DNA from: Bacilli bacterium
GTDB taxonomy: Bacteria; Bacillota_I; Bacilli_A; RFN20; CAG-826
Reading direction: 5' to 3'
Assembly: GCA_900767605.1 (NCBI GenBank)
Contig: CAAFZT010000063.1
Location: 3,747 to 67,746 of the forward strand
Length of the DNA stretch: 64,000 nucleotides
Every line of letters begins with the position of its first letter. Position 1 is the first letter of the stretch. Below are positions 18,842 to 62,741 of the stretch, one piece after another. Both the position numbers and the translations under genes were made by a program. The notes beneath the pieces are model-generated. The model saw only the letters and a list, made by a program, of their open reading frames with translations, was not told the DNA's origin and made no database searches.

Positions 18842-18858
18842 GATAACCCCTTTCTGGA

Positions 18859-20772: not shown

Positions 20773-20785
20773 GGGGGTATTCCTT

Positions 20786-37351: not shown

Positions 37352-38000
37352 CTATTTCAGCGTCTCCCAATACCCTTTTTTGTTCGATCCAACGCGTTGG
37401 ATGTATCCGCTTTTCTTAAGGAAGGAAATATTGTTCTGAACGGCGGTCTCGCCTAATCTCAACTCCACCATGAGACGAGGCCGAGTGATGTTCGGGTTGT
37501 CCCGAATCAGTTCAAGCATCTTCTGTTGGGTTTGATTGAGCGTATCCCTCACTTTATCCCTCACTTTATCCCTCACTTCCGGTTGATGGACGAAATTAAA
37601 TGGGATGGTGACACGAATCGAATTTTCCTCAATGGCAATGGCGTCTTCCCCATAGAACGAGGTGATTTTCGGAACTCCCCTGCCACTGGTCTCGGAAATG
37701 TGGAGTTGGTTGATGATCTTGGCGAGGCTTTTGTTGACGGGTACCGAATCCCCTCGATAGAACCCGAGCATGGTCTGCTCCGGCGGCAACGGGCCGCGGG
37801 AGAGGATCTCCAACCTATCAGAATACATCGTGAACGCGGGGCCATAACCCGTCACCCATTTATTGTGGAGAATTGCGTTGAGTGTTGCTTCAAAAAAGGC
37901 ACTGGGTTCAAACAGTGGGACGTCCTTGCGTTCTACTTTTCGGTTCGTCTCGTCCGCTTGAATCAGATTGATGGTGTCGCCGCAATCGATCAGCTTATCC
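37352..38000 (-). pseudogene. 5'-truncated AlbA_2-family gene (HATPase_c_4-like domain plus wHTH only)
   Basis: 'ATLNAILHNKW', 'SETSGRGVPKI', 'IRVTIPFNFVHQ', VRDK x3 linker and a wHTH are present, but there is no AlbA_2 N-terminal domain. The track ORF extends to 38257 only by reading through the 3' end of the neighbouring gene. Confidence 0.6.
37543..37578 (-). repeat. 3 x 12-bp in-frame tandem repeat (VRDK linker)
   Basis: TATCCCTCACTT x3 on the plus strand. Confidence 0.9.
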
Positions 38001-38189
38001 AGAGAAACCGGGACACAACAATTGCCGAATTCCCTCACCGAATACAAGGATCTATTCTTCCCTCGTTTGCAAATGAGATTTAAAACAATGGGGATTCCAT
38101 GCGCGCAAAAACCCGGAAAGCGGTTGCAAAGCGTCCATGGAAAAGATGCCGTCCCGAGTTGGGGGCGGCATAGAAATTCGTTTATCCGT

Positions 38190-41100: not shown

Positions 41101-41239
41101 TGCTTCCTTTCTGTTCCTTATTCTTTATTTATTAGGAACTTGAATCCGCGTATTTGGGCGTTCCCCGCCAACGCGGATGCGGGGAATTTGAATTCCAGCA
41201 CGACGAAGAATTGGTCTCCCCCGTATGCTAGATGGCTCT

Positions 41240-41267
41240 ATTATAGAATTTAAGAAACGGGTTTCAA
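41240..41267 (-). promoter_or_regulatory. Sigma-A-type promoter for the TasA-like array
   Basis: Minus strand reads TTGAAA-16 nt-TATAAT. Confidence 0.5.
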
Positions 41268-41547
41268 CCATAAAGTAAGCATTCCCTTACTATTTATTTG
41301 TTTTATGCGATGATTAGGGGCTTTGTTGCTCTTTCTCTTTGGGTACTAGACTTCCCTTGGATTGGGGTTCTTGCTCCTTCTTATCCTCCTGTTGACTTCT
41401 TCTGGTCCATGGGCTTCCTGCGAGGAGTTGGAACGTCAAGCAGTCCCCATTTCGTAGACGCTTCCCCATTTCTTTAATCTTTCAGGATTCTATATGCTAA
41501 TTGGACTTCCACGATCCATAGACTCGATATAAGGGCCTACTTTCCGG

Positions 41548-41763
41548 TTACGATATCCCTTTATCTATTTCAGTCCTTCCCATATGGTTGGCTTTACATA
41601 AGTAATCCCATGCGTTCCAATAACCATCTTGGATTCGTTTGATTGCTTTTGTCCCAATGGAAGGGACGGAGAGGGCACATGAGGGAACATGATAGGGCAC
41701 ATGATATGGTTTTTGCAGGGCACATGATGAAACAGGATTAAAAATTACCCTTTCGACAGCCAC
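41548..41763 (-). pseudogene. Possible highly decayed AlbA_2-family remnant
   Basis: 'VIFNPV' resembles 'IPFNFV'. An internal GGGCACATGA-type repeat occurs x4 (41673-41727). The 'DGYWNA' tail resembles 'KGYWET'. Weak overall. Confidence 0.3.
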
Positions 41764-41823
41764 CTTCTTTGTACACTTTTTGAGCGGCGGCTGTCTACTT
41801 AGAGATTAGCAGTAGTCCAATTT

Positions 41824-41870
41824 GTCACTTTATTATCACTTTATTTGTCACTTTATTGTCACTTTATTTT
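41824..41870. repeat. 4 copies of a ~12-bp tandem repeat, (G/A)TCACTTTATT
   Basis: GTCACTTTATTATCACTTTATTTGTCACTTTATTGTCACTTTATTTT. Shares TCACTTTAT with the 37543-37578 coding repeat. Confidence 0.85.
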
Positions 41871-42230
41871 GATGGGAGGATGGAGCAAATTTGCGAGAAG
41901 CCTAGCAAAGCAACTTCTTCTTTCCCCACCCCTCTTGGGAGCAACACCGTGTTTGTCTTTCAAAGAGAAACATCAGGCAAGGGGATACGCTTTCCTTTTA
42001 GAAAAATTACGTCCAAGGCATGGACAATGGATGATATATCGGTTACACGGAATTTGAAAAATGGTGATACCAATGAATCAAAATCAAAAGATGCTAGAAA
42101 GGATGGTGGACGCTGGCAACGGAAAAGATTTGCCAACCTGTCTTAGTCCTTCGATGGCCTTGATTTTCCCGTTGCCTCTAAACCGAAGGAGTTGTTGGAT
42201 TTCCTTATTCCGTTTAAATACGACATCCGT

Positions 42231-43376
42231 TTAGTCTATTTGTCCTCCTGCAAATTCGCTTAATCCCAGGCGAAGGAAATGTTCTAACCCCATGTGGATA
42301 ATTCCGCTTCCATCCTTCCAGGGGGCAGTTTCGATCGGAACAACGACGATTTTCAAATAAGAATCTTTTAAAAACTTCGCCATGGTTTCCGCTTCCTTGA
42401 ATCCATCGGAATCCCCATACGACAAATAAATTTTGTCGCGGCCCTTTCGTAAAACGAATGCGACATCCAAAGCTTGGAACGTTCCGTTGAATTTGCCATA
42501 CACATAACCGCTTGAAACACGGTAAGACTCTTCGATTAGTTTGGACAAAATCATCGTTTTATCTTCGACGGCGTGGTCTCTCTTCTCCCCTTGGAAGCTA
42601 ACGTCCATCGGGTAAAGAGCAAAAGAACGGGCATTCGTCTGTTCCGTCTCTACGTTTTCTCTAGGCAACATTTGGAGCAGATTCGCGCCTTTTAAGAAAT
42701 CAAAATAAGAGAGAAAGGTATTAATGGAAAGTTTGGATTCCAACTCCAGGCGAATTTGATTCACCGTGAGCGGGGTGTCGCAACGATTCAACGAATGACG
42801 AAAAACCGACTCGATATTCCGTGAATAGTCTCCACGGAACTTTTTCAATTGGCGTCCTTCTTCGATTGCTTTTGTCAGGCACTCGTCCTTGGAGACGAAA
42901 AGACCGCCACGTTGTAGATATTCTTCCTGACTTTTCACGGAACCGGACTTCAAGGAATCGATATAAGAAACGGGCGTGAAAGCAAAGCGCTGGAAGCGTC
43001 CGCGAATTAGGGTCTCTTTCTCCCCCAGGGCAAAAGAAGGTTCTAAATCGCTGGTCGCAATAACGTCCACATCGCTTTGTCCAGCACAAGCATCGAACAA
43101 GGATTCCGAATGTTCGAAGAGAAATATATCATCGATAAGGACAATTACATGTTTATCGTGTTCTTTCCTAACCCTCAAAAGCAATGCAGCGGGGTCGTTG
43201 CAAACGGATTGGCGAATTTCAATGATTTGATAATCGGGGCAAGCGCTTAGTTCGTTAAAAAGGTCATGGAATAAAAAACGGGATTTCCCAGAACCAGCCA
43301 GGCCAACAAGCAGCTTGAGCAATCCGTTCCCAAAACTATTTAAGATTTCTTTTTTAAGTGAGGTCCGCATATCCAC
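42231..43376 (-). CDS. P-loop ATPase (AAA_14/COG1373-like?)
   Basis: Walker A 'GLAGSGKSRF', Walker B 'VIVLIDDIF'. Confidence 0.55.
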   Translation of the reverse strand: MDMRTSLKKEILNSFGNGLLKLLVGLAGSGKSRFLFHDLFNELSACPDYQIIEIRQSVCNDPAALLLRVRKEHDKHVIVLIDDIFLFEHSESLFDACAGQSDVDVIATSDLEPSFALGEKETLIRGRFQRFAFTPVSYIDSLKSGSVKSQEEYLQRGGLFVSKDECLTKAIEEGRQLKKFRGDYSRNIESVFRHSLNRCDTPLTVNQIRLELESKLSINTFLSYFDFLKGANLLQMLPRENVETEQTNARSFALYPMDVSFQGEKRDHAVEDKTMILSKLIEESYRVSSGYVYGKFNGTFQALDVAFVLRKGRDKIYLSYGDSDGFKEAETMAKFLKDSYLKIVVVPIETAPWKDGSGIIHMGLEHFLRLGLSEFAGGQID

Positions 43377-48638: not shown

Positions 48639-48720
48639 GGGTCTAGTGGCAACTGGCTGTCTAAAAACTAGACCCTTTAGTTTTGCGTCACCGAATCGCT
48701 TCGGTTTTGCTTTTAACCCC
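48639..48720 (-). promoter_or_regulatory. c-di-GMP-I (GEMM-I) riboswitch aptamer
   Basis: Minus strand reads AAAGCAAAACC-GAA-GCGA-UUC-GG-UGACGCAAAACUAAAGGGUCUAGU...ACUAGACCC. This matches the GEMM-I core 'GGCAAACC-[GNRA hairpin]-GACGCAAAGC' plus a 9-bp P2-type stem. Confidence 0.65.
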
Positions 48721-48723
48721 ACT

Positions 48724-48752: not shown

Positions 48753-49098
48753 CGAAAAGGAAGGGAATTGATCAGGGGGTGGATATAGAAGAAAATGATT
48801 AGCGAAGGAAAAAGTGGGCGGAATCTCTTTATCGAATGGAGTTTTAAAGCAAGATTTATAGCTAAAACAGCATTTAGAAATTTTAAAACGTTTTATGACC
48901 AAGAACCTCTCCTCGGAATAGGACGCCTAATCGATCTTATCCGCTTAACTAATCCTTGAACCTCTATATATATCTACATCAATAGAATAGTAGTTTTATC
49001 CCTTCCCTCTCGAGCCATCCGTCTAGTAACCCCCGAGGTTATAGGAACAAGCGCAAAGTATCGTTATTATTCCAATTGACCATCCCCTTCATTTCTCT

Positions 49099-49291
49099 TG
49101 AAGCGAAATCTGAAGCGAAATTTTGGAAGTTGAAGCGAAATTTGAAGCGAAATTAGCGAAATTGAAACGAAATTTTTTTCGCTTCAAAACGAAGTAATTT
49201 CGCTTCAAAAAGAAAAGTTGGCTTTTTATCGAAACTTTTTGATAATGGGAAACGAAACTGAAACGAAATAACAAGGGCGAGGAAACGAAAT
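49099..49291. repeat. Dense array of TGAAGCGAAAT / GAAACGAAA motifs in direct and inverted orientation
   Basis: TGAAGCGAAAT at 49099, 49111, 49131 and 49143. TAGCGAAAT at 49154 and TGAAACGAAAT at 49163. Inverted TTTCGCTTCA at 49177 and 49198. GAAACGAAA at 49249, 49260 and 49282. Confidence 0.9.
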
Positions 49292-49465: not shown

Positions 49466-49870
49466 ATGGACAAGAAAACGAAACGCACCTTATTAATCGC
49501 GGGAATCGTGGAAGCGGCGATCATCCTCTTCTGCTTGGTTGTATCGATTCTCGTGATTGTGACCTACAACAAGCCGGAATCGGGACCCAACTGGCAACAG
49601 ATGAATCTCGATAAAAACGGACCGATGATCGGCTGGTTCCAAAATAACCCGACGCCGTTCTTCTTAATCATCGTGCTTCCGCTTCTAGTCATCCTTGTTT
49701 TGGATATCATCTATCTCATCATCTATGCCTCCAAGCGTGAATCCAAGCTTAGCGATGCCGAAATCAACGAAATCCAAGCCCAAGCTAGAGCTGAGGCTAG
49801 AGAAGAACTTAGAAAAGAAATCGAAGCCGAGGAACGTGCGAAGGCAGCAGCCGAAAAGAAAGACGAATAA
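49466..49870 (+). CDS. Small membrane protein with a charged coiled-coil-like tail
   Basis: Two predicted TM helices, then 'AQARAEAREELRKEIEAEERAKAAAEKK'. Followed by a strong terminator. Confidence 0.55.
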   Translation: MDKKTKRTLLIAGIVEAAIILFCLVVSILVIVTYNKPESGPNWQQMNLDKNGPMIGWFQNNPTPFFLIIVLPLLVILVLDIIYLIIYASKRESKLSDAEINEIQAQARAEAREELRKEIEAEERAKAAAEKKDE

Positions 49871-51055: not shown

Positions 51056-52294
51056 ATGGAATTATTCAAACGAGAAAACATTTTGAAGCGGATTCGTCCC
51101 TTCTACCAAGACACTTCTTTAATCAAAGTCATCACGGGAATCCGAAGATGCGGCAAATCCTCGATCATGAAATTGATTAGTCAAGAGCTAGAAGAAAATA
51201 ACGGGGTTCCCTCCTCTTCGGTCTTTTTCCTCGACTTGAACTCCCGCCCCTATAAGCGAATCAGCAAGCCCGATGAATTAGAAGCCCTGATCGAAACCCA
51301 TACCAAAGGGATCGAGGGAACGAAATATCTTTTCATCGATGAAGTTCAAAACGTCAAAGGGTTTGAGACGATTTTAGAATCCTTCCGTTTGGAAGGGGAT
51401 TTCAATTTCTTCATCACTGGAAGTAATTCCTATTTGCTTTCCGGGGAACTCATCACCAAATTAACGGGCCGATACCTGGAATTTGAAATGGGGACCTTAA
51501 CCTTCGATGAATATCTGGCGATGAAATCCTTTTATGGGCAGGCTCTTGCCCCGTTAGCGGAAGAATTCCAATCCTTCCTCCAAGACGGGGGATTCCCCCA
51601 AACGATTTTCTTATCTGATTCTTACGCGCGAAAAGAATACTCCAAAAACATCATTCACGAGATTTTCTTAAAGGATATCAAACGAAACCACCGCATCCGG
51701 AACGGGGTGTTATTCGAACAAGTTCAAAACTATATTCTCCATAACTTTGGATCGACCACTTCTATCACCTCACTAGCCGCCTATTTATCGAAAGCAAACG
51801 GAGTCAAAGTATCCGTCCAAAGCGTATATAACTACATCGAAATATTGCTGAATGCGAAGATCATTGAACGGTGTTCCCGAAAGGACATGAAGACAAGACG
51901 AGAACTTAACGGCGGAGAAAAGTATTACCTCGCCGATATGAGTTTCTATTTTGCTACCCAGACCGATAATCGTATTCCCTACGGGGCGTGTTTAGAAAAT
52001 ATCGTTTATAACTATGCAAAAAACAAGGGATATCACATCTCCATCGGCAAAATTGGTAAGTTCGAATGTGACTTCATCTTCCGTAATTCCATCACGGGGG
52101 ACTATTCCTACGCCCAGGTTTGCTACGCAATGACGGGGCAAGAAGAAACCGAGGAACGAGAATATCGACCCTTGGAATCCATTTCCGATAATTACCCGAA
52201 ATATATTCTAACGACGGACACCTTCCTTCAAAGGCGAAACGGCATCCTCCACGTGAATGTCTATGACTTCATGTCCAAGGGATTGATGTTTTAG
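51056..52294 (+). CDS. AAA_14 / DUF4143-type ATPase (COG1373-like)
   Basis: 'GIRRCGKSS' Walker A, 'FIDEVQNV' Walker B. Overall size and C-terminal region are typical of the family. Confidence 0.75.
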   Translation: MELFKRENILKRIRPFYQDTSLIKVITGIRRCGKSSIMKLISQELEENNGVPSSSVFFLDLNSRPYKRISKPDELEALIETHTKGIEGTKYLFIDEVQNVKGFETILESFRLEGDFNFFITGSNSYLLSGELITKLTGRYLEFEMGTLTFDEYLAMKSFYGQALAPLAEEFQSFLQDGGFPQTIFLSDSYARKEYSKNIIHEIFLKDIKRNHRIRNGVLFEQVQNYILHNFGSTTSITSLAAYLSKANGVKVSVQSVYNYIEILLNAKIIERCSRKDMKTRRELNGGEKYYLADMSFYFATQTDNRIPYGACLENIVYNYAKNKGYHISIGKIGKFECDFIFRNSITGDYSYAQVCYAMTGQEETEEREYRPLESISDNYPKYILTTDTFLQRRNGILHVNVYDFMSKGLMF

Positions 52295-52340
52295 TAATCC
52301 ATAAATAACTTCTTGTTCATCCATTCAAAAATCTAGAGTT

Positions 52341-52403
52341 CCGAGGAGTGCCAAGGAGTGCCAAGGAGTGCCAAGGAGTGCCAAGGAGTGCCAAGGAGTG
52401 CCA
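52341..52403. repeat. About 6.3 copies of a 10-bp tandem repeat, CCAAGGAGTG
   Basis: CCGAGGAGTG, then CCAAGGAGTG x5, then CCA. Lies about 60 bp upstream of the 52464 start. Confidence 0.95.
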
Positions 52404-52463
52404 AGGAGTGCCATCCTCTACATTTTCTGATATAATGTACCTATATACAAATGAGGAGTTAGC

Positions 52464-53798
52464 ATGAAGTTTGGAACCGAATCGGAAACTCTAGAATTCA
52501 AAGAATCAACAAGCGAACTTCACCAAGCGGTGGAATCGATTGCCGCTATTTTAAATAAGCACGAATCTGGGAAGATCTACTTTGGAATTGACGATGCAGG
52601 CAATATCAAAGGACAGGTCATCTCAGACAGCACCTTTAAAACGGTATCCGACGCCATACTGCGTGACATCGAGCCGCGAATTATCCCGACGATCGAAAAA
52701 GAGGAACAGGACGGCAAGACCATCTTAAAAGTCAGTTTTAGTGGAACACAAAAGCCCTATTCCGCATTCGGTAGATTTCTTACTCGGGTTGGCACCCAAA
52801 ATCGGGCGATGACTCGAAATGAATTAAGAAAGCTCATTAAAGAGGAAGACTATTCCTTCCCTTGGGAAAAAGAAGTCTACGACATGACTTTGGACGATTT
52901 TGATGATCAAGCCCTATACAATTATTATCAAGAAGCCGTTGGCTGCGGACGTCTTACGTTGCCTAGTTACGACAAAGAATCCCTCCTTACCGTTTTGGAA
53001 CTTTATAAAAACGGGAAATTCAACAACGCCGCGTTTGCCTTATTTGGAAAAAACGCGAATATCAAATTAAAAGTAGCCTGTTTTGCCACGGACGAAAAAC
53101 TAACGTTCACCGACCTCAATTCGATACGCGGCAACATCTATAACTTGATTCAATTCGGTGTTACCTACATCCTGAATCATATTGATTGGCGGATATCCAT
53201 CGGCCTAAAGCGGGAAGAAACACCCGAAATTCCCGTTCAAGCTATCCGCGAAATTATCGTTAACGCGTTTGCCCACGCGATGTATCAGCCGACCCCAGAA
53301 ATTGAAATTAACATCCACCCGGGCCATATAACCATCTTTAACCCCGGCTCTTTCCCAGATGATTTGACTCCACGGGACTTTGTTACCGGCACCCTTTCCT
53401 CCATCAAGCGCAACCCCTTGATTCTTGACGTTTTGTACCGGTGCAAAAACGTCGAAAAAACAGGAACCGGATTTAAACGAGTGGACAAGATGTGCATCGA
53501 AAGTGGAGTTCGTTGGGATAGCCGCAACAGCGCATATGGTTTCTACTTCACCTTCTATCGGAATAGACAGCAAGCGCCAAAAGTCATAGAAACAACCGAA
53601 CGCCCAAAACTTTCGGATATCGAAATGTTTGTTTTCACGGAAATTAAAAACAACCCAAAAATTTCCCGAACAGAGTTGTCAAATACAGTAGGAAGAAGCG
53701 TACGTTCCATTCAGCGCATCGCTAACACGCTGGTGGAAAAAGGCTATTTGATCCGAATTGGCAACAATCAATTTGGTTATTGGGAAGTAGTTCACTAA
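52464..53798 (+). CDS. AlbA_2 / HATPase_c_4-like / wHTH protein (COG2865-like)
   Basis: 'GTESETLEFKESTSEL...HESGKIYFGIDDAGN', 'REIIVNAFAHAMY', 'EKTGTGFKRV'. C-terminal 'IKNNPKISRTEL...GYLIRIGNNQFGYWEVV'. Confidence 0.75.
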   Translation: MKFGTESETLEFKESTSELHQAVESIAAILNKHESGKIYFGIDDAGNIKGQVISDSTFKTVSDAILRDIEPRIIPTIEKEEQDGKTILKVSFSGTQKPYSAFGRFLTRVGTQNRAMTRNELRKLIKEEDYSFPWEKEVYDMTLDDFDDQALYNYYQEAVGCGRLTLPSYDKESLLTVLELYKNGKFNNAAFALFGKNANIKLKVACFATDEKLTFTDLNSIRGNIYNLIQFGVTYILNHIDWRISIGLKREETPEIPVQAIREIIVNAFAHAMYQPTPEIEINIHPGHITIFNPGSFPDDLTPRDFVTGTLSSIKRNPLILDVLYRCKNVEKTGTGFKRVDKMCIESGVRWDSRNSAYGFYFTFYRNRQQAPKVIETTERPKLSDIEMFVFTEIKNNPKISRTELSNTVGRSVRSIQRIANTLVEKGYLIRIGNNQFGYWEVVH

Positions 53799-54354
53799 GC
53801 CTTCCGTGACCATCTTCTGCCATGCAAGCGCATTGCGATGCATCGCAGGAAATTTCTTAATTTCGCTTTTTTCGTTTTTAATCGATCGCTTAAGAGTGTT
53901 TTGGGCCAAAAAGTGTAACTTAAAAACGGGTTTGCCGTTTTTATTTTCAAAATCATGAGGATGAGTTTGCATCCCTCCGCGTTTTAATCCCGGCACTTTT
54001 GGATCAATAAAAGGATCTCGGAATCGGAAAAGAAACGATAGATGACTTTGCTCCGATATTTAATATAGGCAGAGCCGGGAAAAGTGTCCCTTTTTTAGTG
54101 GCGCCATAAGATAAGGGTTTCGAAATTCAAACACCGAATTTCTTCAAAAAAGAAAAAGGTTTCTTTCTCCATTTTTACTCGGATTACATTCTTCTTGGGC
54201 ATGGCACAAAGCCAACGATGATGCCGGCATCTTATTCAGTTGTAATCGTTTTTCTAATAATGTATCCGCGCTTTTTTGCATATTCCAAGATGATATTGGC
54301 ATTTTTTCGCTAATCAAATGTCGCTTTTTTGACTTTTTTGAATGGTAATTTTCT

Positions 54355-54476
54355 AAAAAGTCCCTTGGAATTTCTTATAAAATAATGGAAAAGTCCATTG
54401 GAATTTCTTAAAGATTCATTGAAAAGTCCCTTGGAATTTCTTATATTTTAGACGAAAAGTCCCTTGGAATTTCTTA
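54355..54476. repeat. 4 copies of a 22-bp repeat at an exact 33-bp period (iteron-like)
   Basis: AAAAGTCC(C/A)TTGGAATTTCTTA starts at 54356, 54389, 54422 and 54455. Spacers are 11 bp and variable. The array ends 5 nt before the SD of 54495..55850. Confidence 0.95.
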
Positions 54477-54494
54477 AAAGGAGGCTGAGTTCTT

Positions 54495-55850
54495 ATGTAT
54501 TTTAAAAGAAAAATCGATGCAAAATTAGACGAGTGGCTCCGTAAAAAAGATTCATCCCCCGCGTTAGTCGCCGGGATTCGTCAATGTGGCAAAACCGAAA
54601 CGATTCGTGAATTCGCTAAGCGAAACGGAATGCAACTAATCGAAATCAATTTTTGGACCCATCCCGAATATCGTTCTGACTTCGAAGGGGATTTAGATAT
54701 CGTTACTTTGATGTCCAATCTTTCTTTGCGTTTCCCAAGTGCTTCTTTTGACCCGGACAAAACGCTTATTTTCTTCGATGAAATCCAGGATTGCCCCCGA
54801 GCAAGGCTGGCATTTAAAAATTTCAAAAACGATGGTCGGTTTCATGTAATCGGTAGCGGATCCTATCTCGGAATCAATGGATATGTCATCGGAGACGCTA
54901 CCCCCGCTCCAACAGGATATGAAGACGTGATCCCCATGAAGACCATGGATTTTGAAGAATTCTTATGGGCATCTGGATATAGCAATCAGCAAATCGATTC
55001 CTTGTACGAATATTTCATCTCCAGAAAACCCCTTCCCGAAAACGTGAATCAACTCTATTCCGACCTCTATTTAAAATACACCTGCATCGGCGGATTCCCC
55101 AAAGTCGTCAAGGAATATTTCAAGACGAAACGAATCGTGGAAGCTTATCGCGTCCTTCAAAGCACGATCTTCGATATGAAAAGCGACTTCGGGAGACGAA
55201 AAGACAAAAACGGATCCCCGTTATTTAAGGCATCCGAGGTTTCCCGAATCCAAAGCGTTTTCGATTTAATTCCGACCTTCTTGGCCAAAGAAAGCAAACG
55301 CTTCATCGTTTCCAAAATAGACGGTGGGACGCAATACGATAAAAATGACGCGATCGAATATCTCGAACAGGCCCATATCGTCTCCAAAGTCTATAACCTT
55401 GAAATTCCTTCTCTTCCCTTGGCAGGGCAGAAAATCACTTCTCAATTTAAGCTTTTTCCCGAGGATATCGGCATCGTCACCGCGATGTATGGAATCGATA
55501 CCGTCGCCGCGATTTATCGAGGCGATTTAGGGCAAGGAAAGGGGGCCATTTACGAGGCCTTGGTCTTTGATTCCTTAAGCAAAGCGGGAATCGAACCCTA
55601 TTATTTTGCAAAAAGCAGCGGACTAGAAATCGATTTTGTCATCGCTTATCAAGGTTATCCGACTTTAGTGGAATCCAAAGCGACGACCGGGAACGCCAAA
55701 TCAAGCAAAACAGTGATGAAACATACGGAGCATTATGGCAAAACCAAATGCATCAAAATCGGCAGCTACAACATCAGCGAGGAAGGAGATATTCTCACCA
55801 TTCCTCACTATTTAACCTTCTTATTAGGACGTACCTCTTACGATTTTTAG
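54495..55850 (+). CDS. AAA_14 / DUF4143-type ATPase (COG1373-like)
   Basis: 'GIRQCGKTE' Walker A, 'FFDEIQDCP' Walker B. SD is AAGGAGG. Confidence 0.75.
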   Translation: MYFKRKIDAKLDEWLRKKDSSPALVAGIRQCGKTETIREFAKRNGMQLIEINFWTHPEYRSDFEGDLDIVTLMSNLSLRFPSASFDPDKTLIFFDEIQDCPRARLAFKNFKNDGRFHVIGSGSYLGINGYVIGDATPAPTGYEDVIPMKTMDFEEFLWASGYSNQQIDSLYEYFISRKPLPENVNQLYSDLYLKYTCIGGFPKVVKEYFKTKRIVEAYRVLQSTIFDMKSDFGRRKDKNGSPLFKASEVSRIQSVFDLIPTFLAKESKRFIVSKIDGGTQYDKNDAIEYLEQAHIVSKVYNLEIPSLPLAGQKITSQFKLFPEDIGIVTAMYGIDTVAAIYRGDLGQGKGAIYEALVFDSLSKAGIEPYYFAKSSGLEIDFVIAYQGYPTLVESKATTGNAKSSKTVMKHTEHYGKTKCIKIGSYNISEEGDILTIPHYLTFLLGRTSYDF

Positions 55851-56440
55851 GCCGATTCGTATTCTTTTTCAATCAGTTTAATCAACAATCTCAAATTGGT
55901 CTTCTTGTAGAAGGAAGCTAACCTTTTTAGTTCGGTAAAATCGCAGGAAGCGAATTCGTCTTCGTCGAACCTCTTATCCTTGAATAATAGTTCCTTTAGT
56001 TCCTCCACGTTCTTCACGACCCTGTATTTGCAGAGGGAATCGCAGATGGCTTTTTCTTTACTCGCGATTTTAACGATATATTCCCCTTCTTCTAAATAGG
56101 TAAGCCCGTAATGGAACACCTTGGAGGGGACGTCGCCATATTCAAATCGGCCAAAATGGTTGCAAAAGGTTTTGTTCTTGTGGATTTGCAGGCTTGCCGA
56201 GGTGATGGAAACAACGCGTTCAGGGATGAGCCCATAATAAGACAATGCCCATTCAAAGCTTAAATAGGACGGGGATAAAATCGAAGAGGCGAGTAGATAG
56301 GGCTCGGCGTGGGGATTTGTTTCGTAAAGACCCCTCGTTAAGCGAAATAGAATTCCTTTATCCGCGTCGCGCTTGATTTTGTCCAAAGGATTCGCATAAT
56401 CGCGATATCTCTCCTTCAGCATCGAAATCGTAACAATCAT
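55847..56440 (-). CDS. AbiEi-family antitoxin-like protein (orphan; no AbiEii partner seen)
   Basis: 'GILFRLTRGLYE' and 'SYLSFEWALSYYGLIPE' match the AbiEi pattern. Overlaps the converging gene by 4 nt. Confidence 0.65.
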   Translation of the reverse strand: MIVTISMLKERYRDYANPLDKIKRDADKGILFRLTRGLYETNPHAEPYLLASSILSPSYLSFEWALSYYGLIPERVVSITSASLQIHKNKTFCNHFGRFEYGDVPSKVFHYGLTYLEEGEYIVKIASKEKAICDSLCKYRVVKNVEELKELLFKDKRFDEDEFASCDFTELKRLASFYKKTNLRLLIKLIEKEYESA

Positions 56441-56594
56441 TTTTGCTCCTCTAAATACAATTATATTGGATTATGCGGAGCAATTAAATAGGGAATCTTT
56501 TTGCCCTGTATTGTCCTGTAATCTCCCTTATTTTTAGGGGAATAAGCATTTTGAAGCCAAAAATGAAAAGCGGCTGATCATCGAATGAATTTCC

Positions 56595-56630
56595 AAAAAT
56601 AGTGAAAAAATAGTGAAAAAATAGTGAAAT
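56595..56630. repeat. 3 copies of an 11-bp tandem repeat, AAAAATAGTGA
   Basis: AAAAATAGTGAAAAAATAGTGAAAAAATAGTGAAAT. Confidence 0.9.
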
Positions 56631-56877
56631 CCGCCCCATAAAATAGCGACATCGATTATAACCTTAGAAACCCGTTTTCGGAAAAATGTGTAAATTGTTC
56701 TAAGAAAAGTCGGAAAAATGTGTTTTTCATGATTTCGGCCCAGAAAAAGAATGCCTGCGAACAGTCTGGATTCGGAAGTGTAAAACGGCTATAAGCCCCT
56801 TGCCAGGCGCAGTTCTGGCAAAAGTTAATTCTCATATCATCCTGACAATGACTCTCTTTATGGCCTGTTTCCCCTTT

Positions 56878-57072
56878 ACCATCCTAATGACCATCCTAAT
56901 GACCATCCTATTAGAAATATCTATATAGTGTAGTTTGTTTATCCGACCATAAAAATAGTATTTTTCATCGATAAATGGCCGAATATTACAATTTTTTCTT
57001 ACTTCAAATTAGTTGTCTTTCATTTCAAAAAAGAATGACCGTCCTATTGACCATCCTATTAAACCATCCTAT
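56878..57072. repeat. Two triplets of a 12-bp ACCATCCTA-type repeat flanking the promoter region of 57103..58806
   Basis: ACCATCCTAATG x2 then ACCATCCTATTA (56878-56913). GACCGTCCTATT, GACCATCCTATT, AAACCATCCTAT (57037-57072). Confidence 0.9.
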
Positions 57073-57102
57073 ATTAAATTTACATTGCGAGGCACCCAAG
57101 AA

Positions 57103-58806
57103 ATGAATGAATCAAAAGAGTTGGAATTTAAGGTTGTTTTAGACCGAAAGCACCCCGAACACTGGATGAAAACCGTGTGTGCCTTCGCCATGACTAACGG
57201 TGGCAAACTCATGGTTGGTTATCAGGATGACGGCGCTTTTGTTGGTGTCCCCTCCGAAAATGTTGACGACGAAGTTCAATACGCCGTCAATCAGTTCCGC
57301 TATCTTTCTAAGCCCATGGTTGCATACGACGTTCGTTACGAAGAACGCCCAGAATTTCCAGGACGGAAGGGGATTATTTTCCAGATTCAGCCCCGCAAAG
57401 AAATCACTTGGCTCACCCCTCATGATCATAGTCCTCTCGCCTATATTCGCGAGGAAAGAGCAACTCTCCCCGCCCCCGTCGAAGTATTGCAAGAACGGCT
57501 GCTGGAATCCTTAACCACGCCTTACGATTCCGTTAGCATAGGAGTTAAACGAAGCGAGGTATCTTTTTCCCTTCTTTCTGATTTATATGCCAGCAAGCAC
57601 GAGGGGCGACCTTTGACCGAACGAGATTTAGCTTCTTTTGGTTTGGTGGACAAGAATGGCTTTTTAACCATAACTGGCTACGCATTTTGCGATGATAGCG
57701 ACTATTTCAACGCCCAAGTTCTTTGCACCACCTGGCCCGAAACCGATAAAGGGGGGCGCAATTATCTCGACTCCAAGACATTTTCGGGGTCCATTTTGCA
57801 ACTAATCGAAAAAATGATGGATTACGTTCACGGAGTTATGTTCTTTCAATTTGGTGGGGTCAAAAAAGGGATGTTTCGCGAAGAGGACGGTTCTTTTTCC
57901 ACCGCTTCTTTGCGCGAAGCTTTCGTGAACGCCGTCGCTCACCGAGACTATCGCCTCTCCGGGCCGATTTCTTTGCAATGTTTCCCTGACCGAATTGAAA
58001 TCACCTCCCCTGGATCCATGCGTTCTTTAAAGTCGGTAACGAATATGCCTCTAATTGGGGTGGAATCGGATCGAAGAAACCAGACGATTTCCGCGATGCT
58101 CGCCCGAATCGGCTTGATGGAAGAAAGAGGGTCGGGATTTGATTTGATTCTAAACGACTACTCCTTATTAGATGAGCGTTATACTCCGCGCATCACCGCG
58201 ACCAAAACCTACTTCACCTTATCGCTTAAAAACAAAAAATACGATTACGGTTCCCTTTTAGGAGTCGCTAATGGAACCAGTTCTCTCGTCCACGTTCCCA
58301 ACACCCCAATGTTTTCTTCGCGCGAATCTCTTTACAAAGAAAATCTAAAATATCCCCTTGTCGAAGATTTGATCCGTCAAAATCCAAACGCCAAATTTGC
58401 CGATATTCAAAAAGGAACCGGATTAACTCTAGGTGGAGCAAAATACTTAATCACAGCCATGAAAAAAGCTTGTTTGATCCGGAGGGAGGGAAATCCCGTC
58501 AATGGTCATTACGAAGTCGTTCAAGACTCCGATCGCCCCGCGGATTTTCTCCGTCTTGACATAGAAAGCCGTACCAAAGCCGTCGCGTGGTGCGTTCGTT
58601 ATTTTATGGTTTCTTCTACTTACGATCCCAGGTGCACTTCCATTGAATTAAAAGGGACATTGGAGGCTTTTGATGGCACTTATTTAAGCAACGGGCAATT
58701 CAAAGGCGCAATGCTTTTATCGGGATATAAACCTCAAAATGAAGAAGACTTAAATTGGGTTTTTTCCGTCTCGGAGAAATCTCCCGCCTTTCATCTCAAA
58801 AAATAG
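57103..58806 (+). CDS. AlbA_2 / HATPase_c_4-like / wHTH protein (COG2865-like) with an extended C-terminus
   Basis: Start moved to ATG 57103 ('MNESKELEFKVVLD', the typical AlbA_2 N-terminus). 'REAFVNAVAHRDY', 'EERGSGFDLI'. The wHTH contains 'IRQNPNAKFADI'. Confidence 0.7.
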   Translation: MNESKELEFKVVLDRKHPEHWMKTVCAFAMTNGGKLMVGYQDDGAFVGVPSENVDDEVQYAVNQFRYLSKPMVAYDVRYEERPEFPGRKGIIFQIQPRKEITWLTPHDHSPLAYIREERATLPAPVEVLQERLLESLTTPYDSVSIGVKRSEVSFSLLSDLYASKHEGRPLTERDLASFGLVDKNGFLTITGYAFCDDSDYFNAQVLCTTWPETDKGGRNYLDSKTFSGSILQLIEKMMDYVHGVMFFQFGGVKKGMFREEDGSFSTASLREAFVNAVAHRDYRLSGPISLQCFPDRIEITSPGSMRSLKSVTNMPLIGVESDRRNQTISAMLARIGLMEERGSGFDLILNDYSLLDERYTPRITATKTYFTLSLKNKKYDYGSLLGVANGTSSLVHVPNTPMFSSRESLYKENLKYPLVEDLIRQNPNAKFADIQKGTGLTLGGAKYLITAMKKACLIRREGNPVNGHYEVVQDSDRPADFLRLDIESRTKAVAWCVRYFMVSSTYDPRCTSIELKGTLEAFDGTYLSNGQFKGAMLLSGYKPQNEEDLNWVFSVSEKSPAFHLKK

Positions 58807-58818
58807 ATTGTGATTTCT

Positions 58819-58837
58819 AGGGCTTATAGCCCTTTTC
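58819..58837 (+). terminator. Probable intrinsic terminator
   Basis: AGGGCT-TAT-AGCCCT followed by TTTC. Confidence 0.5.
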
Positions 58838-58851
58838 GGCATGGTTGGCCA

Positions 58852-58880
58852 TTGACAGGAAAAAGGAGTATCGATAAACT
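58852..58880 (+). promoter_or_regulatory. Sigma-A-type promoter driving the riboswitch
   Basis: TTGACA-17 nt-TAAACT, ending about 7 nt before the aptamer. Confidence 0.6.
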
Positions 58881-58886
58881 ACGAAT

Positions 58887-58980
58887 CGATAAAGGCAAAA
58901 CCTGGGTAACCAGGCGACGCAAAGCTACAGGGCCCCGAAGGAGGCAGCCAGCTCCCGAGAAGTGGAGTGGCTTCTTTTTG
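58887..58980 (+). promoter_or_regulatory. c-di-GMP-I (GEMM-I) riboswitch with terminator-type expression platform
   Basis: AUAAAGGCAAAACC-UGG-GUAA-CCA-GG-CGACGCAAAGCUACAGGGCC matches the GEMM-I core, including the GNRA hairpin. It is followed by AGCCAGCUCC-N8-GGAGUGGCU and UCUUUUU (58945-58979). Confidence 0.8.
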
Positions 58981-59090
58981 GGCAATTGAAGCGTTGTACT
59001 CCCTTCAAAAATTGGGCAAAATATCTTATCTCTCCTTTAGGAGAGTTCATTTTCGTGTGTTATGCGCGCGAACGAAAGGAGGCACTTCCT

Positions 59091-60098
59091 TTGGGTAAAC
59101 CAACTTCCAATCCGCCAAGCGACTCCGCTTTTCCCTCGCCAAGCTATAAAATGAGCGAGAAAATCGCAAGGCGTAGAAAAGCCAAGAAAATCGCAACGAT
59201 CGTCGGGGCTACCGGGTTAGCCGGGGTCACTTTATTTTCGATTATTGCTTTTTTAGGTCGCGTCTCGGGCAATTTCACCGTCAATATCAATCAATCTTCT
59301 AATCTTGCTCGGCTTCAATTATCCGAGACTAAGGACTTCGCTTCTCCTAGTGTCCACCTCAAAGCTCCGGGGCTAGATAACGCCTCCTGTGCTTCTAGCG
59401 ACGACGTTTTGAAAGTGGGGGATGAAGCTAATATCGCTGAAAATGGCGGTTCGTACTCCGAAAAATTAGATGAAATTCGTTATGATGAAGACGGGAATGA
59501 AAACTCGCGGATCAATCGCGGTTTGATTTATTCTTGCTTCTTACTCAATCCTAGCTCGGTCGCGGTCAAATTCGACTTGAGTCTAGTGATGACGGGTTAT
59601 TCTTCTCCTTCCAATGCGGCGGTAGAGCCTTATTCCCTCTTACGGGTAGGGATTTGGCATACCCGTTTTGCCATGGATGGGGTGGCCGAGGCGAGCTTAT
59701 TCAAGTGCTTTGCCGCGGATAATACGACCGTCAGGTATTCGGGAGATGGCATCCGTATCGAAGACGATCCCCGCGAATACGTGGGGGAATCCCATTTGAT
59801 GCGAGGGACCCATTCGGGAGAAAACATCACCTATCGACGTTTGGACCAAACAATTGCCACCGATCCTAGGAGCCAGCAAAAAGCGGATAGCTTCACCGGT
59901 TACCTGGGGGGAGAAGGCATCTTCTCCGAGCGTTACCGTGCGGATAACGAATACCAAATCAACGCCCTGCAGCCGGGACAAATGTCGCGCTTCACCTTCG
60001 CCTTCTGGTTCGAAGGGGGCGACCCCGATTGCCAAGGTCCGACTCCTCAGGGAGCCTCGATGACCTTCCAAATGAATTTCACCCCTTCCGTTTTATAA
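59091..60098 (+). CDS. TasA-like family secreted protein (divergent signal)
   Basis: A TTG start at 59091 has AAGGAGG 8 nt upstream (ATG 59151 is the alternative; the track start 58962 lies inside the riboswitch). 'NINQSSNLARLQLS' and C-terminal 'FAFWFEGGDPDCQGPTPQGASMTFQMNF' match the family blocks. Confidence 0.6.
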   Translation: MGKPTSNPPSDSAFPSPSYKMSEKIARRRKAKKIATIVGATGLAGVTLFSIIAFLGRVSGNFTVNINQSSNLARLQLSETKDFASPSVHLKAPGLDNASCASSDDVLKVGDEANIAENGGSYSEKLDEIRYDEDGNENSRINRGLIYSCFLLNPSSVAVKFDLSLVMTGYSSPSNAAVEPYSLLRVGIWHTRFAMDGVAEASLFKCFAADNTTVRYSGDGIRIEDDPREYVGESHLMRGTHSGENITYRRLDQTIATDPRSQQKADSFTGYLGGEGIFSERYRADNEYQINALQPGQMSRFTFAFWFEGGDPDCQGPTPQGASMTFQMNFTPSVL

Positions 60099-60104
60099 AC
60101 CATC

Positions 60105-61184
60105 ATGAAAAAGAATCCGTCCAAAAAGACAACGCATTCCAAAGCCCTCCTGGGAATAGGGGCGCTTTCGCTTGGACTGACTCTTTCTAGCTTGGCTACC
60201 GCGACTTATGCCTAGTTTGATATCGTCACAAGCGCATCGCTAGACCAAATCGAAATGAGTTTTGGGGGAGCCCCAAGTCTAGAGATGGGATTAAAAGATA
60301 CGGAAGGAAATATCCATTACGCTTCTAGTTGGAACGATGCGTCTTTGCAAGAATTAGACCCCACTTACGTTCCGTTTGAGCCCTTAAAAGAAGTTTCTTC
60401 CATGTTTGAATCGAGTTGGAATCATTCTTCGATGGATTCTTCTTCGGCATTCCCTCTTCTCTATGAGCCTTTCTACGCGAGCCAAGATCCGACTTCAACT
60501 CCTGTAGCTAAAGACGGATTTCTCCAATACGAAATGTTCTTCCGTAGCGACCGTAACCTCTATTTGTTCCTAGACGGGGCGACCAAAATCTCCCCCTTAA
60601 AGGAATTGAATAAGTCCCGCGCGGAGGAAATCAATGCCCAAACGGGTTCTTCGTTAAAAGGATCCGACCTCGACCAAGTCGTCGATGCGGTGCGGGCGAG
60701 TTTCTTTAGTGAGACCAGCTTCTACATCTGTTCTCCTAGTGGCTCTTCTTCCGTGACCTACGGAGGTCTCCTCGACCTCGATAAAGACGGGTATTATGAC
60801 TCAAGGGAGGGCAAAGAAATCGTCTATGGGGATTATGCGGGAACTCCACTTTATGGGGAGCCCCTTAGCGAAGATAGCTTATCTCCTTCTAGCCCCAATG
60901 CCTTCGAGGCCAAACACCAAAAAGGGATTTCGCCTTGGCTCCATAACGACGTCGGCTTCCAAAAGGAAACCTCCTATTCCGTCGAAGAACTCGCGTTAAG
61001 CAAATCCGCTTCCTATTTCGATGCTTCTACCATGAAGCCCCTCGCCCACTTAAAAGCCAACGTCCCCACGCGGCTTGTCTTCACCCTCTACGCCGAAGGG
61101 TGGGACCATCATCTCACCGAGAAGATCGCTAACGGCGCCTTCTCCCTTCATTTAGCCTTTACCGGACTTGAATCCGCCAAATAA
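60105..61184 (+). pseudogene. TasA-like gene with SipW-cognate signal, interrupted by an in-frame TAG at the conserved Trp codon
   Basis: ATG 60105 gives 'MKKNPSKKTTHSKALLGIGALSLGLTLSSLATATYA*FDIV', with TAG at 60213-60215 where paralogs have the W of 'AWF'. It is in the same frame as track ORF 60255..61184. C-terminal 'LVFTLYAEGWDHH' block. Confidence 0.65.
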
Positions 61185-61199
61185 AAAAGGAGCACCATT

Positions 61200-62741
61200 A
61201 TGTCAGACTACTTCCAGTACCTTAAGGAATTCCTCATTGCCTTCTTTGCGAACATCGGCCACTGGTTCAACGACCGCTTCGCCGGTCCTTGGGCCCGCGT
61301 CCCCGGGGAATTTGAGAATTATTCCTCTTTATTAAGGACCTATTCCCCCGGATTTGGATTCTGGGGATGGCTCTTCTATGTGCTTTTCTTGCTCCTAGCC
61401 ATCGCCTTGATCGGCTCCATTCTCTTCTTCATTGGGTATTTTATTTACCGGTACGTCAAATTCTATAAGAAGGAATCCGCAGCCGATCGCATGCAGGCCC
61501 AAATCGAAGAGCTTAATTACGAACTCTATCAAGCCTTGGCCGAAAAAGACCGCATCCTTGGCCTTCAATTCGAAGGAATGGGCGGCAAAGCTCCTGCTAA
61601 AATCGGGCCCAAGGGCGAAAAGGAAGAAGAAACTAGCGGAACCGGGCCGCGCTTCCCGCGCCTTGCTCTTGTGGATTCCCGTTATGCCACCCCGATGTCT
61701 CCGACCGAACTCCCCACGGACGCTCAAGATATTAGCCTTGTCGGGATTTGTGAACGCTTCCGCTTGTTCGCCTGCTCCCAGATGGGACTTTATTACACCC
61801 CGGAAGTCGTCCGGCAATTCTTCGCCGCGATGGGAACGGGCAAAATCATCATTTTGGAAGGGATTTCCGGCACCGGTAAAACCTCGCTTCCTTATTGCTT
61901 AGGACGTTTCTTTAAACATAACGCGGCCATCTGCTCCGTCCAGCCTTCTTGGCATGACCGCAGCGAGTTACTAGGCTATTACAATGACTTCACCCATAAA
62001 TTCACCGAGACCGAATTCCTCCGCGCGATTTATGAAGCCACGTATCGCGATGACATCAACATCGTCGTCCTCGACGAAATGAACCTCGCCCGTATCGAGT
62101 ACTATTTTGCCGAATTCCTCTCCATCATGGAAATGCCAAACGTCAACGAATGGAATATTTCCCTCGTTGCCGCTCCGCAACCCGATGACCCCAAGCACCT
62201 CCGCGATGGAAGGTTACTCATTCCGCAGAACATTTGGTTCGTGGGCACCGCCAATAACGATGACTCCACCTTCACGATCACCGATAAGGTTTATGATCGT
62301 GCCATGTCCTTATTCTTTGATAATAAAGGGATTGCTTTTGAAGCTCCTTATACCGATCCGCTTCCTCTTCCTTATCATTATTTTAAATCCCTCTTCGACC
62401 AAGCGATGGTCGATCACCCTTTAAGCGAAGCCACCTTAACCAAATTCCAGTCTTTGGATAGTTTTGTCATCGATCACTTCAAGCTCGCCTTTGGTAACCG
62501 TATCATGAAGCAGCTTGGCGAATTCGTTCCTTGCTATGTGGGGTGCGGCGGAACAGAACTAGAAGCCGTCGACTACGTTTTCTGCTCGAAGATTCTCAAG
62601 AAATTCGAAGTCTTAAATGTTGGATTCCTCCGCGACGAATTACTCGCCCTCGATAAAGAATTGGTGCGTCTATTTGGCAAAGGAGAATTCGTTTTATCCC
62701 ACAAGAAGATCAAATCCTTCTTGAAGCAATCGCAAGAATAA
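61200..62741 (+). CDS. Membrane-anchored McrB-family AAA+ NTPase (paralog of 18859..20772)
   Basis: 'GISGTGKTS', 'VVLDEMNLARIEYYFAEFLSIMEMP', 'FVGTANNDDSTFTITDKVYDRA'. N-terminal hydrophobic segment 'FGFWGWLFYVLFLLLAIALIGSILFFIGYFIY'. Shared 'FP.L..(I/V)D..Y' block. Confidence 0.7.
   Translation: MSDYFQYLKEFLIAFFANIGHWFNDRFAGPWARVPGEFENYSSLLRTYSPGFGFWGWLFYVLFLLLAIALIGSILFFIGYFIYRYVKFYKKESAADRMQAQIEELNYELYQALAEKDRILGLQFEGMGGKAPAKIGPKGEKEEETSGTGPRFPRLALVDSRYATPMSPTELPTDAQDISLVGICERFRLFACSQMGLYYTPEVVRQFFAAMGTGKIIILEGISGTGKTSLPYCLGRFFKHNAAICSVQPSWHDRSELLGYYNDFTHKFTETEFLRAIYEATYRDDINIVVLDEMNLARIEYYFAEFLSIMEMPNVNEWNISLVAAPQPDDPKHLRDGRLLIPQNIWFVGTANNDDSTFTITDKVYDRAMSLFFDNKGIAFEAPYTDPLPLPYHYFKSLFDQAMVDHPLSEATLTKFQSLDSFVIDHFKLAFGNRIMKQLGEFVPCYVGCGGTELEAVDYVFCSKILKKFEVLNVGFLRDELLALDKELVRLFGKGEFVLSHKKIKSFLKQSQE

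Follow-up and report, generated by a model that had tools for sequence, protein, structure and literature searches.

A class I c-di-GMP riboswitch aptamer with an overlapping predicted terminator, upstream of a candidate surface-fibre operon in uncultured gut Bacilli

What controls an operon whose proteins carry almost no annotation, and what does that control say about the operon? The question is raised by positions 58887-58980 of a 64,000-nucleotide (nt) stretch of DNA from a member of the Bacilli (contig CAAFZT010000063.1, positions 3,747 to 67,746), which we refer to as the window. An earlier note, here called the original prediction, had proposed that this segment is a class I riboswitch for cyclic di-GMP (c-di-GMP) with a terminator platform, lying upstream of a TasA-like and McrB-like locus. 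We analysed the RNA, the remainder of its leader, the genes downstream and a set of related loci. The related loci carry L numbers and come from public metagenomes and metagenome-assembled genomes (MAGs); L001 is the window's own contig, which extends 3' of the window.

The segment is a canonical class I c-di-GMP aptamer

We compared the entire window with Rfam 15 by using cmscan at gathering thresholds. RF01051 (c-di-GMP-I, GEMM-I) matched at 58884-58959 (+) with a score of 58.9 bits, against a gathering threshold of 35, and an E-value of 5.7e-9. The alignment spans positions 1-87 of the 87 positions of the model, i.e., the match is full-length. The letters on which the original prediction was built, AAAGGCAAAACC-UGG-GUAA-CCA-GG-CGACGCAAAGCUACAGGG, are present in exactly that form at 58887-58980, and the GUAA-capped GNRA hairpin sits where it had been placed; with the score above the gathering threshold, the assignment to RF01051 stands. 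The parts of the aptamer are as follows.

58884-58959 (+), c-di-GMP-I (GEMM-I, RF01051) aptamer, matched by cmscan over the full model
G58895-C58896 paired with G58919-C58920 (+), helix P1, from the RF01051 alignment
58901-58905 (CCUGG) paired with 58910-58914 (CCAGG) (+), helix P1b, closed by the GNRA loop GUAA at 58906-58909
58923-58934 (5' strand) and 58943-58953 (3' strand) (+), helix P2

The prototype of the class, Vc2 of Vibrio cholerae, has the same P1/P1b/P2 layout, the same GNRA-capped P1b, the GGCAAA and GACGCAAAGC motifs, and the nucleotides G20 and A47 (PMC6140456). All of these have counterparts in the window: the GUAA loop on P1b is a GNRA tetraloop, the kind of loop that in this class docks into a receptor in P2, the GGCAAA, GACGCAAAGC and CAGCC motifs are all present, and the model alignment places G58894, just before the G-C of P1, at G20 and A58921, which follows GACGC, at A47. 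The window aptamer differs from Vc2 in its short P2, since ~11 model positions are deleted from the distal part of that helix in the RF01051 alignment, and in its host, an uncultured gut Bacilli or Mollicutes-like lineage. We conclude that the segment is a genuine, canonical class I c-di-GMP riboswitch aptamer, ordinary in itself.

The family to which the aptamer belongs does not by itself fix the ligand, because RF01051 also captures variants that respond to cyclic GMP-AMP (cGAMP). The riboswitch might therefore sense 3',3'-cGAMP, or both dinucleotides, as a GEMM-Ib-type switch. In Vc2, c-di-GMP is told apart from 3',3'-cGAMP through the contact made by G20, and the G20A change makes the aptamer bispecific (PMC6140456). 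An A at the equivalent position is found in several related aptamers, namely, those of L004, L008, L025, L028 and L037 and a second aptamer in the window. The aptamer studied here, however, has G at this position (G58894), and the EAL phosphodiesterase of the operon downstream has its motifs intact, in keeping with signalling by c-di-GMP. These two features together favour c-di-GMP as the ligand, and the RNA of 58884-58959 would be expected to bind it. We consider a cGAMP-type switch very improbable.

A predicted terminator shares a strand with the aptamer

Three elements surrounding the aptamer bear on how it might act.

58852-58880 (+), predicted sigma-70-type promoter, TTGACA at 58852-58857, 17-nt spacer, TAAACT at 58875-58880
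58947-58979 (+), intrinsic terminator, 5' arm GCCAGCUCC at 58947-58955, loop CGAGAAGU, 3' arm GGAGUGGC at 58964-58971, U tract UUCUUUUU at 58972-58979
58957-58976 (+), predicted small antiterminator helper, GAGAAGU at 58957-58963 with GCUUCUU at 58970-58976

The TTGACA-17-TAAACT promoter lies right before the aptamer, as had been stated in the original prediction; 3 nt separate its end from the start of the Rfam match. It was the sole promoter-like site found by a promoter scan of 58000-60000, with 10 of 12 matches. Shuffled sequence yields chance sites of equal quality at a rate of ~2.4 per 2 kb, and the site taken alone is therefore weak evidence. When we read the sequences of the distant loci L004, L008, L009 and L045, we found TTGACA there also and similarly spaced, ~37-38 nt upstream of the GCAAA motif.

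The terminator stem, GCCAGCUCC with GGAGUGGC, contains one bulged G. The hairpin was part of the minimum free energy (MFE) fold for segments of 102, 51 and 96 nt, and the 51-nt segment was more stable than 197 of 200 dinucleotide shuffles (z = -2.48). The stretch 58947-58953 is used twice, in the P2 3' strand of the aptamer and in the 5' arm of the terminator, so the two folds are mutually exclusive; this shared stretch bears out the earlier statement that a hairpin and U tract follow the aptamer with a 5' arm that overlaps it. Folding with ViennaRNA gave the aptamer as the MFE structure for up to ~80 nt of transcript, with the terminator fold winning once its 3' arm has been made; the MFE was -29.2 kcal/mol with the terminator, compared with -26.0 kcal/mol when the aptamer pairs were enforced. 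In the aptamer-constrained fold, in which P2 is kept closed, the pairing of GAGAAGU with GCUUCUU hides part of the U tract and of the terminator 3' arm. A similar pairing of a purine-rich with a U-rich stretch can be made out by eye in distant leaders (GGAACAAAA with UUUUGUUCC), and we infer that the pairing at 58957-58976 might act as an antiterminator helper.

The most likely arrangement is a transcriptional ON switch, in which c-di-GMP would stabilise P2 and prevent termination. This direction is suggested by the overlap of the terminator with the aptamer and by the folding energies. Transcription would start from the promoter at 58852-58880. In the absence of ligand, 58964-58971, once made, would pair with the P2 3' strand at 58947-58955, giving the terminator followed by UUCUUUUU, and transcription would stop ~110 nt before the first gene of the operon (gene 1). 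When c-di-GMP is bound, P2 would be locked and the 5' arm of the terminator would be unavailable; GAGAAGU would be free to pair with GCUUCUU, and the polymerase would read through into the operon.

The ON switches of the Bacillus cereus group offer a close parallel. In Bc2, which precedes cap, and in Bc3-5, found before cspABCDE, the 5' arm of the terminator likewise reuses 3' nucleotides of the aptamer, ligand prevents termination, and the cargo is of the cell-surface or adhesion kind (PMC4759541; PMC4933901). For Bc3-5 of B. thuringiensis, this same overlap logic leads to c-di-GMP-dependent read-through in reporters (PMC4759541). The window leader differs in having a single aptamer; in preceding a TasA-like and McrB-like/DUF2357/SipW-like module, where Bc2 and Bc3-5 precede genes for LPXTG surface proteins; and in serving an operon with an EAL gene of its own.

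The aptamer is conserved upstream of gene 1

Through a 513-amino-acid (aa) protein encoded downstream of the aptamer, we located the window's own contig in a public metagenome (L001). Gene 1 has few homologues: a single query found 8 clusters, and a profile found 19. Their sources are human-gut, chicken and rumen metagenomes and MAGs, and the labels attached to them are uncultured Bacilli, "Mollicutes" UMGS153, an Erysipelotrichaceae MAG and Candidatus Alloenteromonas. RF01051 was found directly upstream of the gene 1 homologue in all seven of the sources in one set and in 19 of 20 in a further set, the lone exception having just 132 nt of upstream DNA. With two additional loci that show the same arrangement, there are ~30 loci altogether, and across the loci that bear the aptamer, the identity of the gene 1 protein falls to ~22%.

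The RNA structure is conserved along with its position. An RNAalifold analysis of 25 related aptamers found compensatory double changes in 11 of the 15 consensus pairs. Among close relatives, G58904A occurs with C58911T, a compensatory change from G-C to A-U in P1b, and C58952T still allows pairing, as G-U, in P2 and in the terminator alike. We asked whether the segment could resemble an aptamer through chance or decay and play no part in regulation. Against this stand an E-value of 5.7e-9 over the full model, the position kept in ~30 loci, the compensatory substitutions, and a promoter and a terminator that are in register with the aptamer, and we assign the idea next to no probability.

The platform that follows the aptamer is also shared. 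A stem closing on the 3' strand of P2, followed by a U-rich tract, is present in 15 of 18 distinct leaders; its usual form in relatives is GCCAGUUGCC paired with GGCAACUGGC and then AUUUUU. The window leader is a compact form of this platform, which is shared across the family. The conserved GGCAACUG of distant leaders is the 3' arm of the terminator or of an alternative helix. We also considered whether, in distant leaders, the conserved stretch behind the aptamer (GGGCAACUGAGC, GAUUCCAAUGGUA) contains a second RNA element; an Rfam scan by E-value of L004 9700-10030 found only RF01051, and the candidate was dropped.

Several related loci carry more than one aptamer. L047 (2614-2931) and L053 and L054 (2610-2931) each have three tandem full-length RF01051 aptamers, ~122 nt apart and each with its own short terminator, upstream of distant gene 1 homologues; the triple-tandem architecture is that of Bc3-5 of B. 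thuringiensis. L004 has an extra RF01051 aptamer (51.3 bits) at 18978-19052, within the operon and directly before the last gene (~1000 aa), and a motif match, as distinct from an Rfam match, places an aptamer at the equivalent position (~18670-18930) in L022, L023 and L024. In the window lineage, the corresponding last genes are 12 nt apart with no aptamer between them. In L039 (42-255) and L042 (631-845), an aptamer and its own terminator come before an apparent 3' half of a second aptamer (GAUAGCCAGUUGCC), after which the conserved family platform follows; the arrangement may be a decayed tandem.

The operon encodes candidate TasA-like proteins

The operon that starts after the leader has eight genes, several of which lie beyond the end of the window and were read from L001.

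59091-60098 (+), gene 1, 335 aa, N-terminal membrane anchor and beta-sandwich body, candidate TasA-like fibre subunit
60105-61184 (+), gene 2, second secreted protein, 359 aa with a ...TATYAWFD... N-terminal signal region in relatives
61200-62741 (+), McrB-like AAA+ (GTPase-type) protein, 513 aa, transmembrane segment at residues ~50-86, short helical or coiled-coil-like stretch
62741 to beyond 64000 (+), DUF2357 (McrC N-terminal domain) protein, 661 aa in full (L001), PF09823 E-value 2e-8
beyond the window (L001 13531-14562; L004 15783-16616), operon gene 5, SipW-like signal peptidase
beyond the window (L001), EAL phosphodiesterase, 239 bits, motifs EALxR, DDFGIG and EGVE intact, two transmembrane segments
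beyond the window (L001), PNP_UDP_1 protein
beyond the window (L001), last operon gene, large membrane protein of at least 869 aa, with an EAL domain in full-length relatives

Gene order is kept from the window lineage to loci in which gene 1 is merely 25-31% identical. In the gene 1 protein, residues 34-58 form a predicted transmembrane segment; the IIAFLGRVSGNFT motif is invariant, and a WxEGxDPDCxG motif is present at the C terminus. An AlphaFold model built from 5 sequences was unusable, with a predicted local distance difference test score (pLDDT) of 47.9, and we replaced it with a model built from 15 sequences, which had a pLDDT of 73.7 and a predicted template modelling score (pTM) of 0.73. 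In a Foldseek search of the PDB with this model, the TasA fibre 8aur_A was the sole match at an E-value of ≤1e-3 (E-value 1.4e-4, probability 1.0). Viral structures searched in the same way gave no match at an E-value of ≤1e-3, and sequence searches of the PDB with profiles of gene 1 and its paralogues gave nothing meaningful.

The paralogues in question are four proteins of the window with a FAWF motif. BLASTP detected no match between them and gene 1 or gene 2; only profile comparison found a shared C-terminal motif, hhalign aligning that of gene 1 with the WLEG motif of the four paralogues at a probability of 77%. The N terminus of gene 2, as seen in relatives, also resembles the FAWF paralogues. 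The "TasA-like" part of the proposed locus is thus upheld by the 8aur_A match of the gene 1 model, at a low TM-score, by the TATYAWFD N terminus of gene 2 and by the SipW-like peptidase of the operon. We regard gene 1 as TasA-like with reservations, on the strength of a structural model.

In Bacillus subtilis, TasA fibres are processed by the SipW signal peptidase, and the tapA-sipW-tasA operon is controlled by SinR-type protein regulators. The window operon resembles tapA-sipW-tasA in that a SipW-like peptidase is encoded alongside secreted proteins with a predicted beta-sandwich, for which the TasA fibre is the best structural match. It differs in that its proteins have no detectable sequence homology to TasA or Peptidase_M73, in its additional McrB-like/DUF2357, EAL and PNP_UDP_1 genes, and in being preceded by a riboswitch in place of SinR-type control.

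The McrB-like motor fits the CoCoPALM description

The 513-aa protein is the best-conserved member of the operon, being 48-70% identical in distant loci. It matched AAA_5, with a weak match to the McrB equivalog, and its residues 204-372 matched the AAA+ domain of E. coli McrB (6hz4) with an E-value of 1.5e-4. A hydrophobic segment at residues 50-86 is followed by a stretch that we judged by eye to be heptad-like (AADRMQAQIEELNYELYQALAEKDRILGLQ). The GTPase signature reads GTANNDDS; the HMMER alignment to LMNTADRS of McrB is gapless, and the signature can be read as NxD(D) or as NxxD. The start of the DUF2357 gene overlaps the stop codon of the GTPase gene. With an AAA+ domain that matches E. 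coli McrB and a DUF2357 gene next to it, the "McrB-like" part of the proposed locus holds as well. The peptidase matched NF046067 with an E-value of 2e-7 (8.8e-14 for the L004 orthologue) and TIGR02228 with E-values of 7.7e-8 and 4.5e-13.

A census of McrBC systems has given the name "CoCoPALM" to a class in which an McrB-like GTPase is fused to an FtsB-like transmembrane and coiled-coil region and has a DUF2357 partner; the associated proteins of the signal peptidase family are thought to act in pilus assembly (PMC11090510). An NxD signature marks the CoCoPALM GTPase clade, and the census names the class and defers its analysis (PMC11090510). With its McrB-like GTPase that has an N-terminal transmembrane helix and a possible helical region, its DUF2357 partner and its gene of the signal peptidase family, the operon fits this brief description, as far as domain content can tell. 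The difference is that the census mentions no riboswitch, c-di-GMP or TasA-like cargo (PMC11090510), and our literature search found nothing linking a c-di-GMP riboswitch to CoCoPALM, TasA, SipW, DUF2357 or McrB operons.

A paralogous system occupies 954-26194 (-) of the window, and 17510-20889 in particular. One of its members, a transmembrane McrB-like protein of 676 aa, shares 40% identity over 364 aa with the McrB-like protein of the riboswitch operon (E-value 3e-83). The system also has a DUF2357 protein, an ABC ATPase, small proteins with an N-terminal anchor and several unknown proteins of 800-1040 aa. The cmscan analysis of the whole window found no RF01051 aptamer before it.

Weighing an ON switch for a surface-fibre operon

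Taken as a whole, the explanation that we propose is a c-di-GMP-I ON switch through which high c-di-GMP turns on an operon for a surface fibre and a CoCoPALM-type motor, with feedback through EAL, and we put its probability at roughly three in four. The analysis shows the identity of the aptamer with its conservation and covariation, its overlap with the terminator, the domain assignments and the synteny of the operon; the other parts of the explanation are inferred. High c-di-GMP would switch on a tapA-sipW-tasA-like surface-fibre or matrix assembly module together with a "CoCoPALM"-type McrBC-like motor. All eight genes would be transcribed together, the products would serve fibre assembly, and the co-transcribed EAL enzyme would lower c-di-GMP, giving negative feedback.

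Several observations weigh against this explanation. Only ~3 kcal/mol separate the terminator fold from the aptamer fold in the predictions, and because this gap is so small, the direction of the switch rests on the overlap argument. RNAalifold, run on nine platform sequences, recovered only an invariant core helix and no covariation in the terminator helix; the aptamer fixes the 5' arm of that helix, which accounts for the lack of covariation, and the terminator is thus supported by conservation of its design and not by covariation. Among the proteins, the match of gene 1 to 8aur_A has a low TM-score (0.26/0.36) and a root mean square deviation of 12 Å; gene 1, gene 2 and the FAWF paralogues have no Pfam or NCBIfam (TasA/Peptidase_M73) match; and all of the SipW matches are below the curated cut-offs. 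Gene 2 of the window has an in-frame TAG at 60213-60215 that replaces the W codon of the YAWF signal motif. The codon is TGG in the 11 other loci that have a matching segment (L010-L018, L020 and L029), and TAG is seen only in the window and L001. Comparison with those 11 loci suggests that gene 2 is probably inactivated, or lacks a signal peptide, in this strain or assembly. Two further observations, a second hairpin in the leader and a match to a defence family, open the way to rival explanations.

A second hairpin lies between the switch and gene 1

The leader continues past the terminator with the following features.

59030-59055 (+), second terminator-like hairpin, CUCUCC-UUUA-GGAGAG followed by UUCAUUUUCG, from the terminator scan
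59075-59082 (+), Shine-Dalgarno sequence AAAGGAGG
59091-59093 (+), likely TTG start codon of gene 1, in frame with the open reading frame (ORF) at 58962-60098

The terminator scan listed 59030-59055 as terminator-like on account of CTCTCCTTTAGGAGAG plus TTCATTTTCG, and the hairpin was also present in the fold of 217 nt. Placed as it is between the switch and gene 1, it could blunt the response. Its 5' arm, CUCUCCUUU, is complementary to the Shine-Dalgarno sequence AAAGGAGG. The hairpin is possibly a second, ligand-independent terminator, or else a structure that interacts with the Shine-Dalgarno sequence, and from this follows an alternative for the leader as a whole: the aptamer binds c-di-GMP and the leader is no simple ON switch, either because 59030-59055 terminates transcription regardless of ligand or because control is mixed, acting on transcription and translation. 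There is a precedent in Bc1 of B. thuringiensis, in which a ligand-insensitive second terminator abolishes or masks the response (PMC11218506). As in Bc1, the leader is long, 58884 and the TTG at 59091 being ~207 nt apart, and behind the aptamer come two terminator-like hairpins in a row. Unlike the situation in Bc1, the second hairpin of the window is weak and lies ~50 nt downstream of the first; Bc1 has also been reported to be unresponsive in vivo. In the window leader, the one inspected for this element, the second stem is just 6 bp long and is followed by an interrupted tail (UUCAUUUUCG); the design of the first terminator is the one kept in 15 of 18 related leaders. We therefore consider this alternative quite unlikely and prefer the simple ON switch.

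Gene callers chose the ATG at ~59152 and not the TTG at 59091 as the start of gene 1; owing to such differences in start choice, no exact match turned up for the protein read from the TTG. Close relatives differ by a 1-nt indel within 59062-59091 (GGCACTTCC versus GGCAACTTCC) that moves an upstream ATG in or out of frame. The indel speaks for 59062-59090 being noncoding, and the shifting frame of the upstream ATG explains why the database lengths of gene 1 differ (315, 335 and 345 aa). The comparison suggests that the true start of gene 1 is at or after the TTG at 59091.

A surface role is preferred over defence

McrBC-like modules are usually taken as restriction or defence systems, and the operon might likewise be an anti-phage or restriction system, i.e., an McrBC-like type IV system with a PNP-type effector that is under second-messenger control and does not assemble fibres. 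The 513-aa McrB-like protein matches the PADLOC candidate phage defence family PDC-M26A with an E-value of 5e-39, which is the second of the two observations mentioned above, and the DUF2357 domain of its neighbour is the N-terminal domain of McrC (PMC11090510). The operon includes a PNP_UDP_1 gene, genes of the Schlafen AlbA_2/HATPase_c_4 and AAA_14/DUF4143 kinds abound nearby, and AbiEii occurs in relatives. However, the McrB-like GTPase is membrane anchored, and in every case secreted TasA-like proteins are encoded before it and a SipW-like signal peptidase after it. We detected no nuclease domain in the DUF2357 protein of 661 aa. The authors of the McrBC census themselves tie this architecture to pilus assembly (PMC11090510), and the paralogous McrB-like/DUF2357 pair of the window likewise stands among surface-type proteins. 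Membrane anchoring, TasA-like partners and a SipW-like peptidase fit a surface structure better than they fit defence; we consider the defence explanation unlikely and retain a role for the operon at the cell surface.

What the linkage implies

The RNA adds nothing new to riboswitch biology, being a textbook GEMM-I aptamer on a platform of a known type. The modest novelty is the tight and ancient linkage of the riboswitch to an essentially uncharacterised TasA-like/CoCoPALM operon that has a built-in EAL gene. The value of the riboswitch is that of a functional label for an operon with almost no protein annotation: control by c-di-GMP and a built-in EAL enzyme argue for a role in biofilm formation or adhesion in place of the restriction or defence role usually given to McrBC-like modules. 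As a testable functional hypothesis, the linkage would help in the study of the CoCoPALM class and of the surface structures of abundant uncultured gut Bacilli.

A broader and more tentative proposal, which we hold to be possible, is that the riboswitch is a conserved master switch of a machine, driven by an McrB GTPase of the CoCoPALM kind, that builds or exports TasA-like fibres in wall-reduced lineages of uncultured Bacilli from gut and rumen. A motor of the McrBC restriction type would then have been exapted for a non-defence role at the surface, being on at high c-di-GMP and limiting itself through the co-transcribed EAL enzyme. If this is true, the association with a riboswitch would give the first hint, from regulation, of the function of CoCoPALM systems.

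A second aptamer and other features of the window

The second full-length RF01051 aptamer of the window lies at 48645-48721 (-) and scored 55.9 bits. A TTGAAA / TG-n-TAATTT promoter precedes it, and it ends 9 nt ahead of an ATG at 48636. The gene that follows encodes a 300-aa FAWF-type (TasA-like) protein, and the next encodes a 1347-aa FSYAWF protein. We found neither a U tract nor a Shine-Dalgarno sequence in the region of this aptamer. An alternative helix of 11 bp (GGGUCUAGU... with ...ACUAGACCC) reaches right up to the start codon, suggesting a platform of a different kind, possibly a translational one. A motif match at ~23482-23534 (-) had pointed to a third aptamer; it lies inside a coding region and was not detected by Rfam, and we rejected it.

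Schlafen AlbA_2 and HATPase_c_4 genes (four copies or fragments) and AAA_14 and DUF4143 genes (two copies) are found at 28803-30161, 37352-38257 and 51056-58806. These repeats lie between and around the two riboswitch operons. In the close relatives L010-L017, part of the Schlafen/AAA_14 stretch is replaced by a pair that contains AbiEii, so this region is a variable island.

Between a cluster of TasA-like paralogues and an AAA-like gene, ~1.1 kb (41100-42231) has no ORF of >100 aa and matched no Rfam family at the gathering threshold. An intergenic region separates the operon of the second riboswitch from the divergent ORF at 49466-49870. It contains, at 49098-49291, ~8 direct repeats of an ~12-nt unit (TTGAAGCGAAAT and variants) spaced 16-32 nt apart, which could be an array of binding sites for a regulator.

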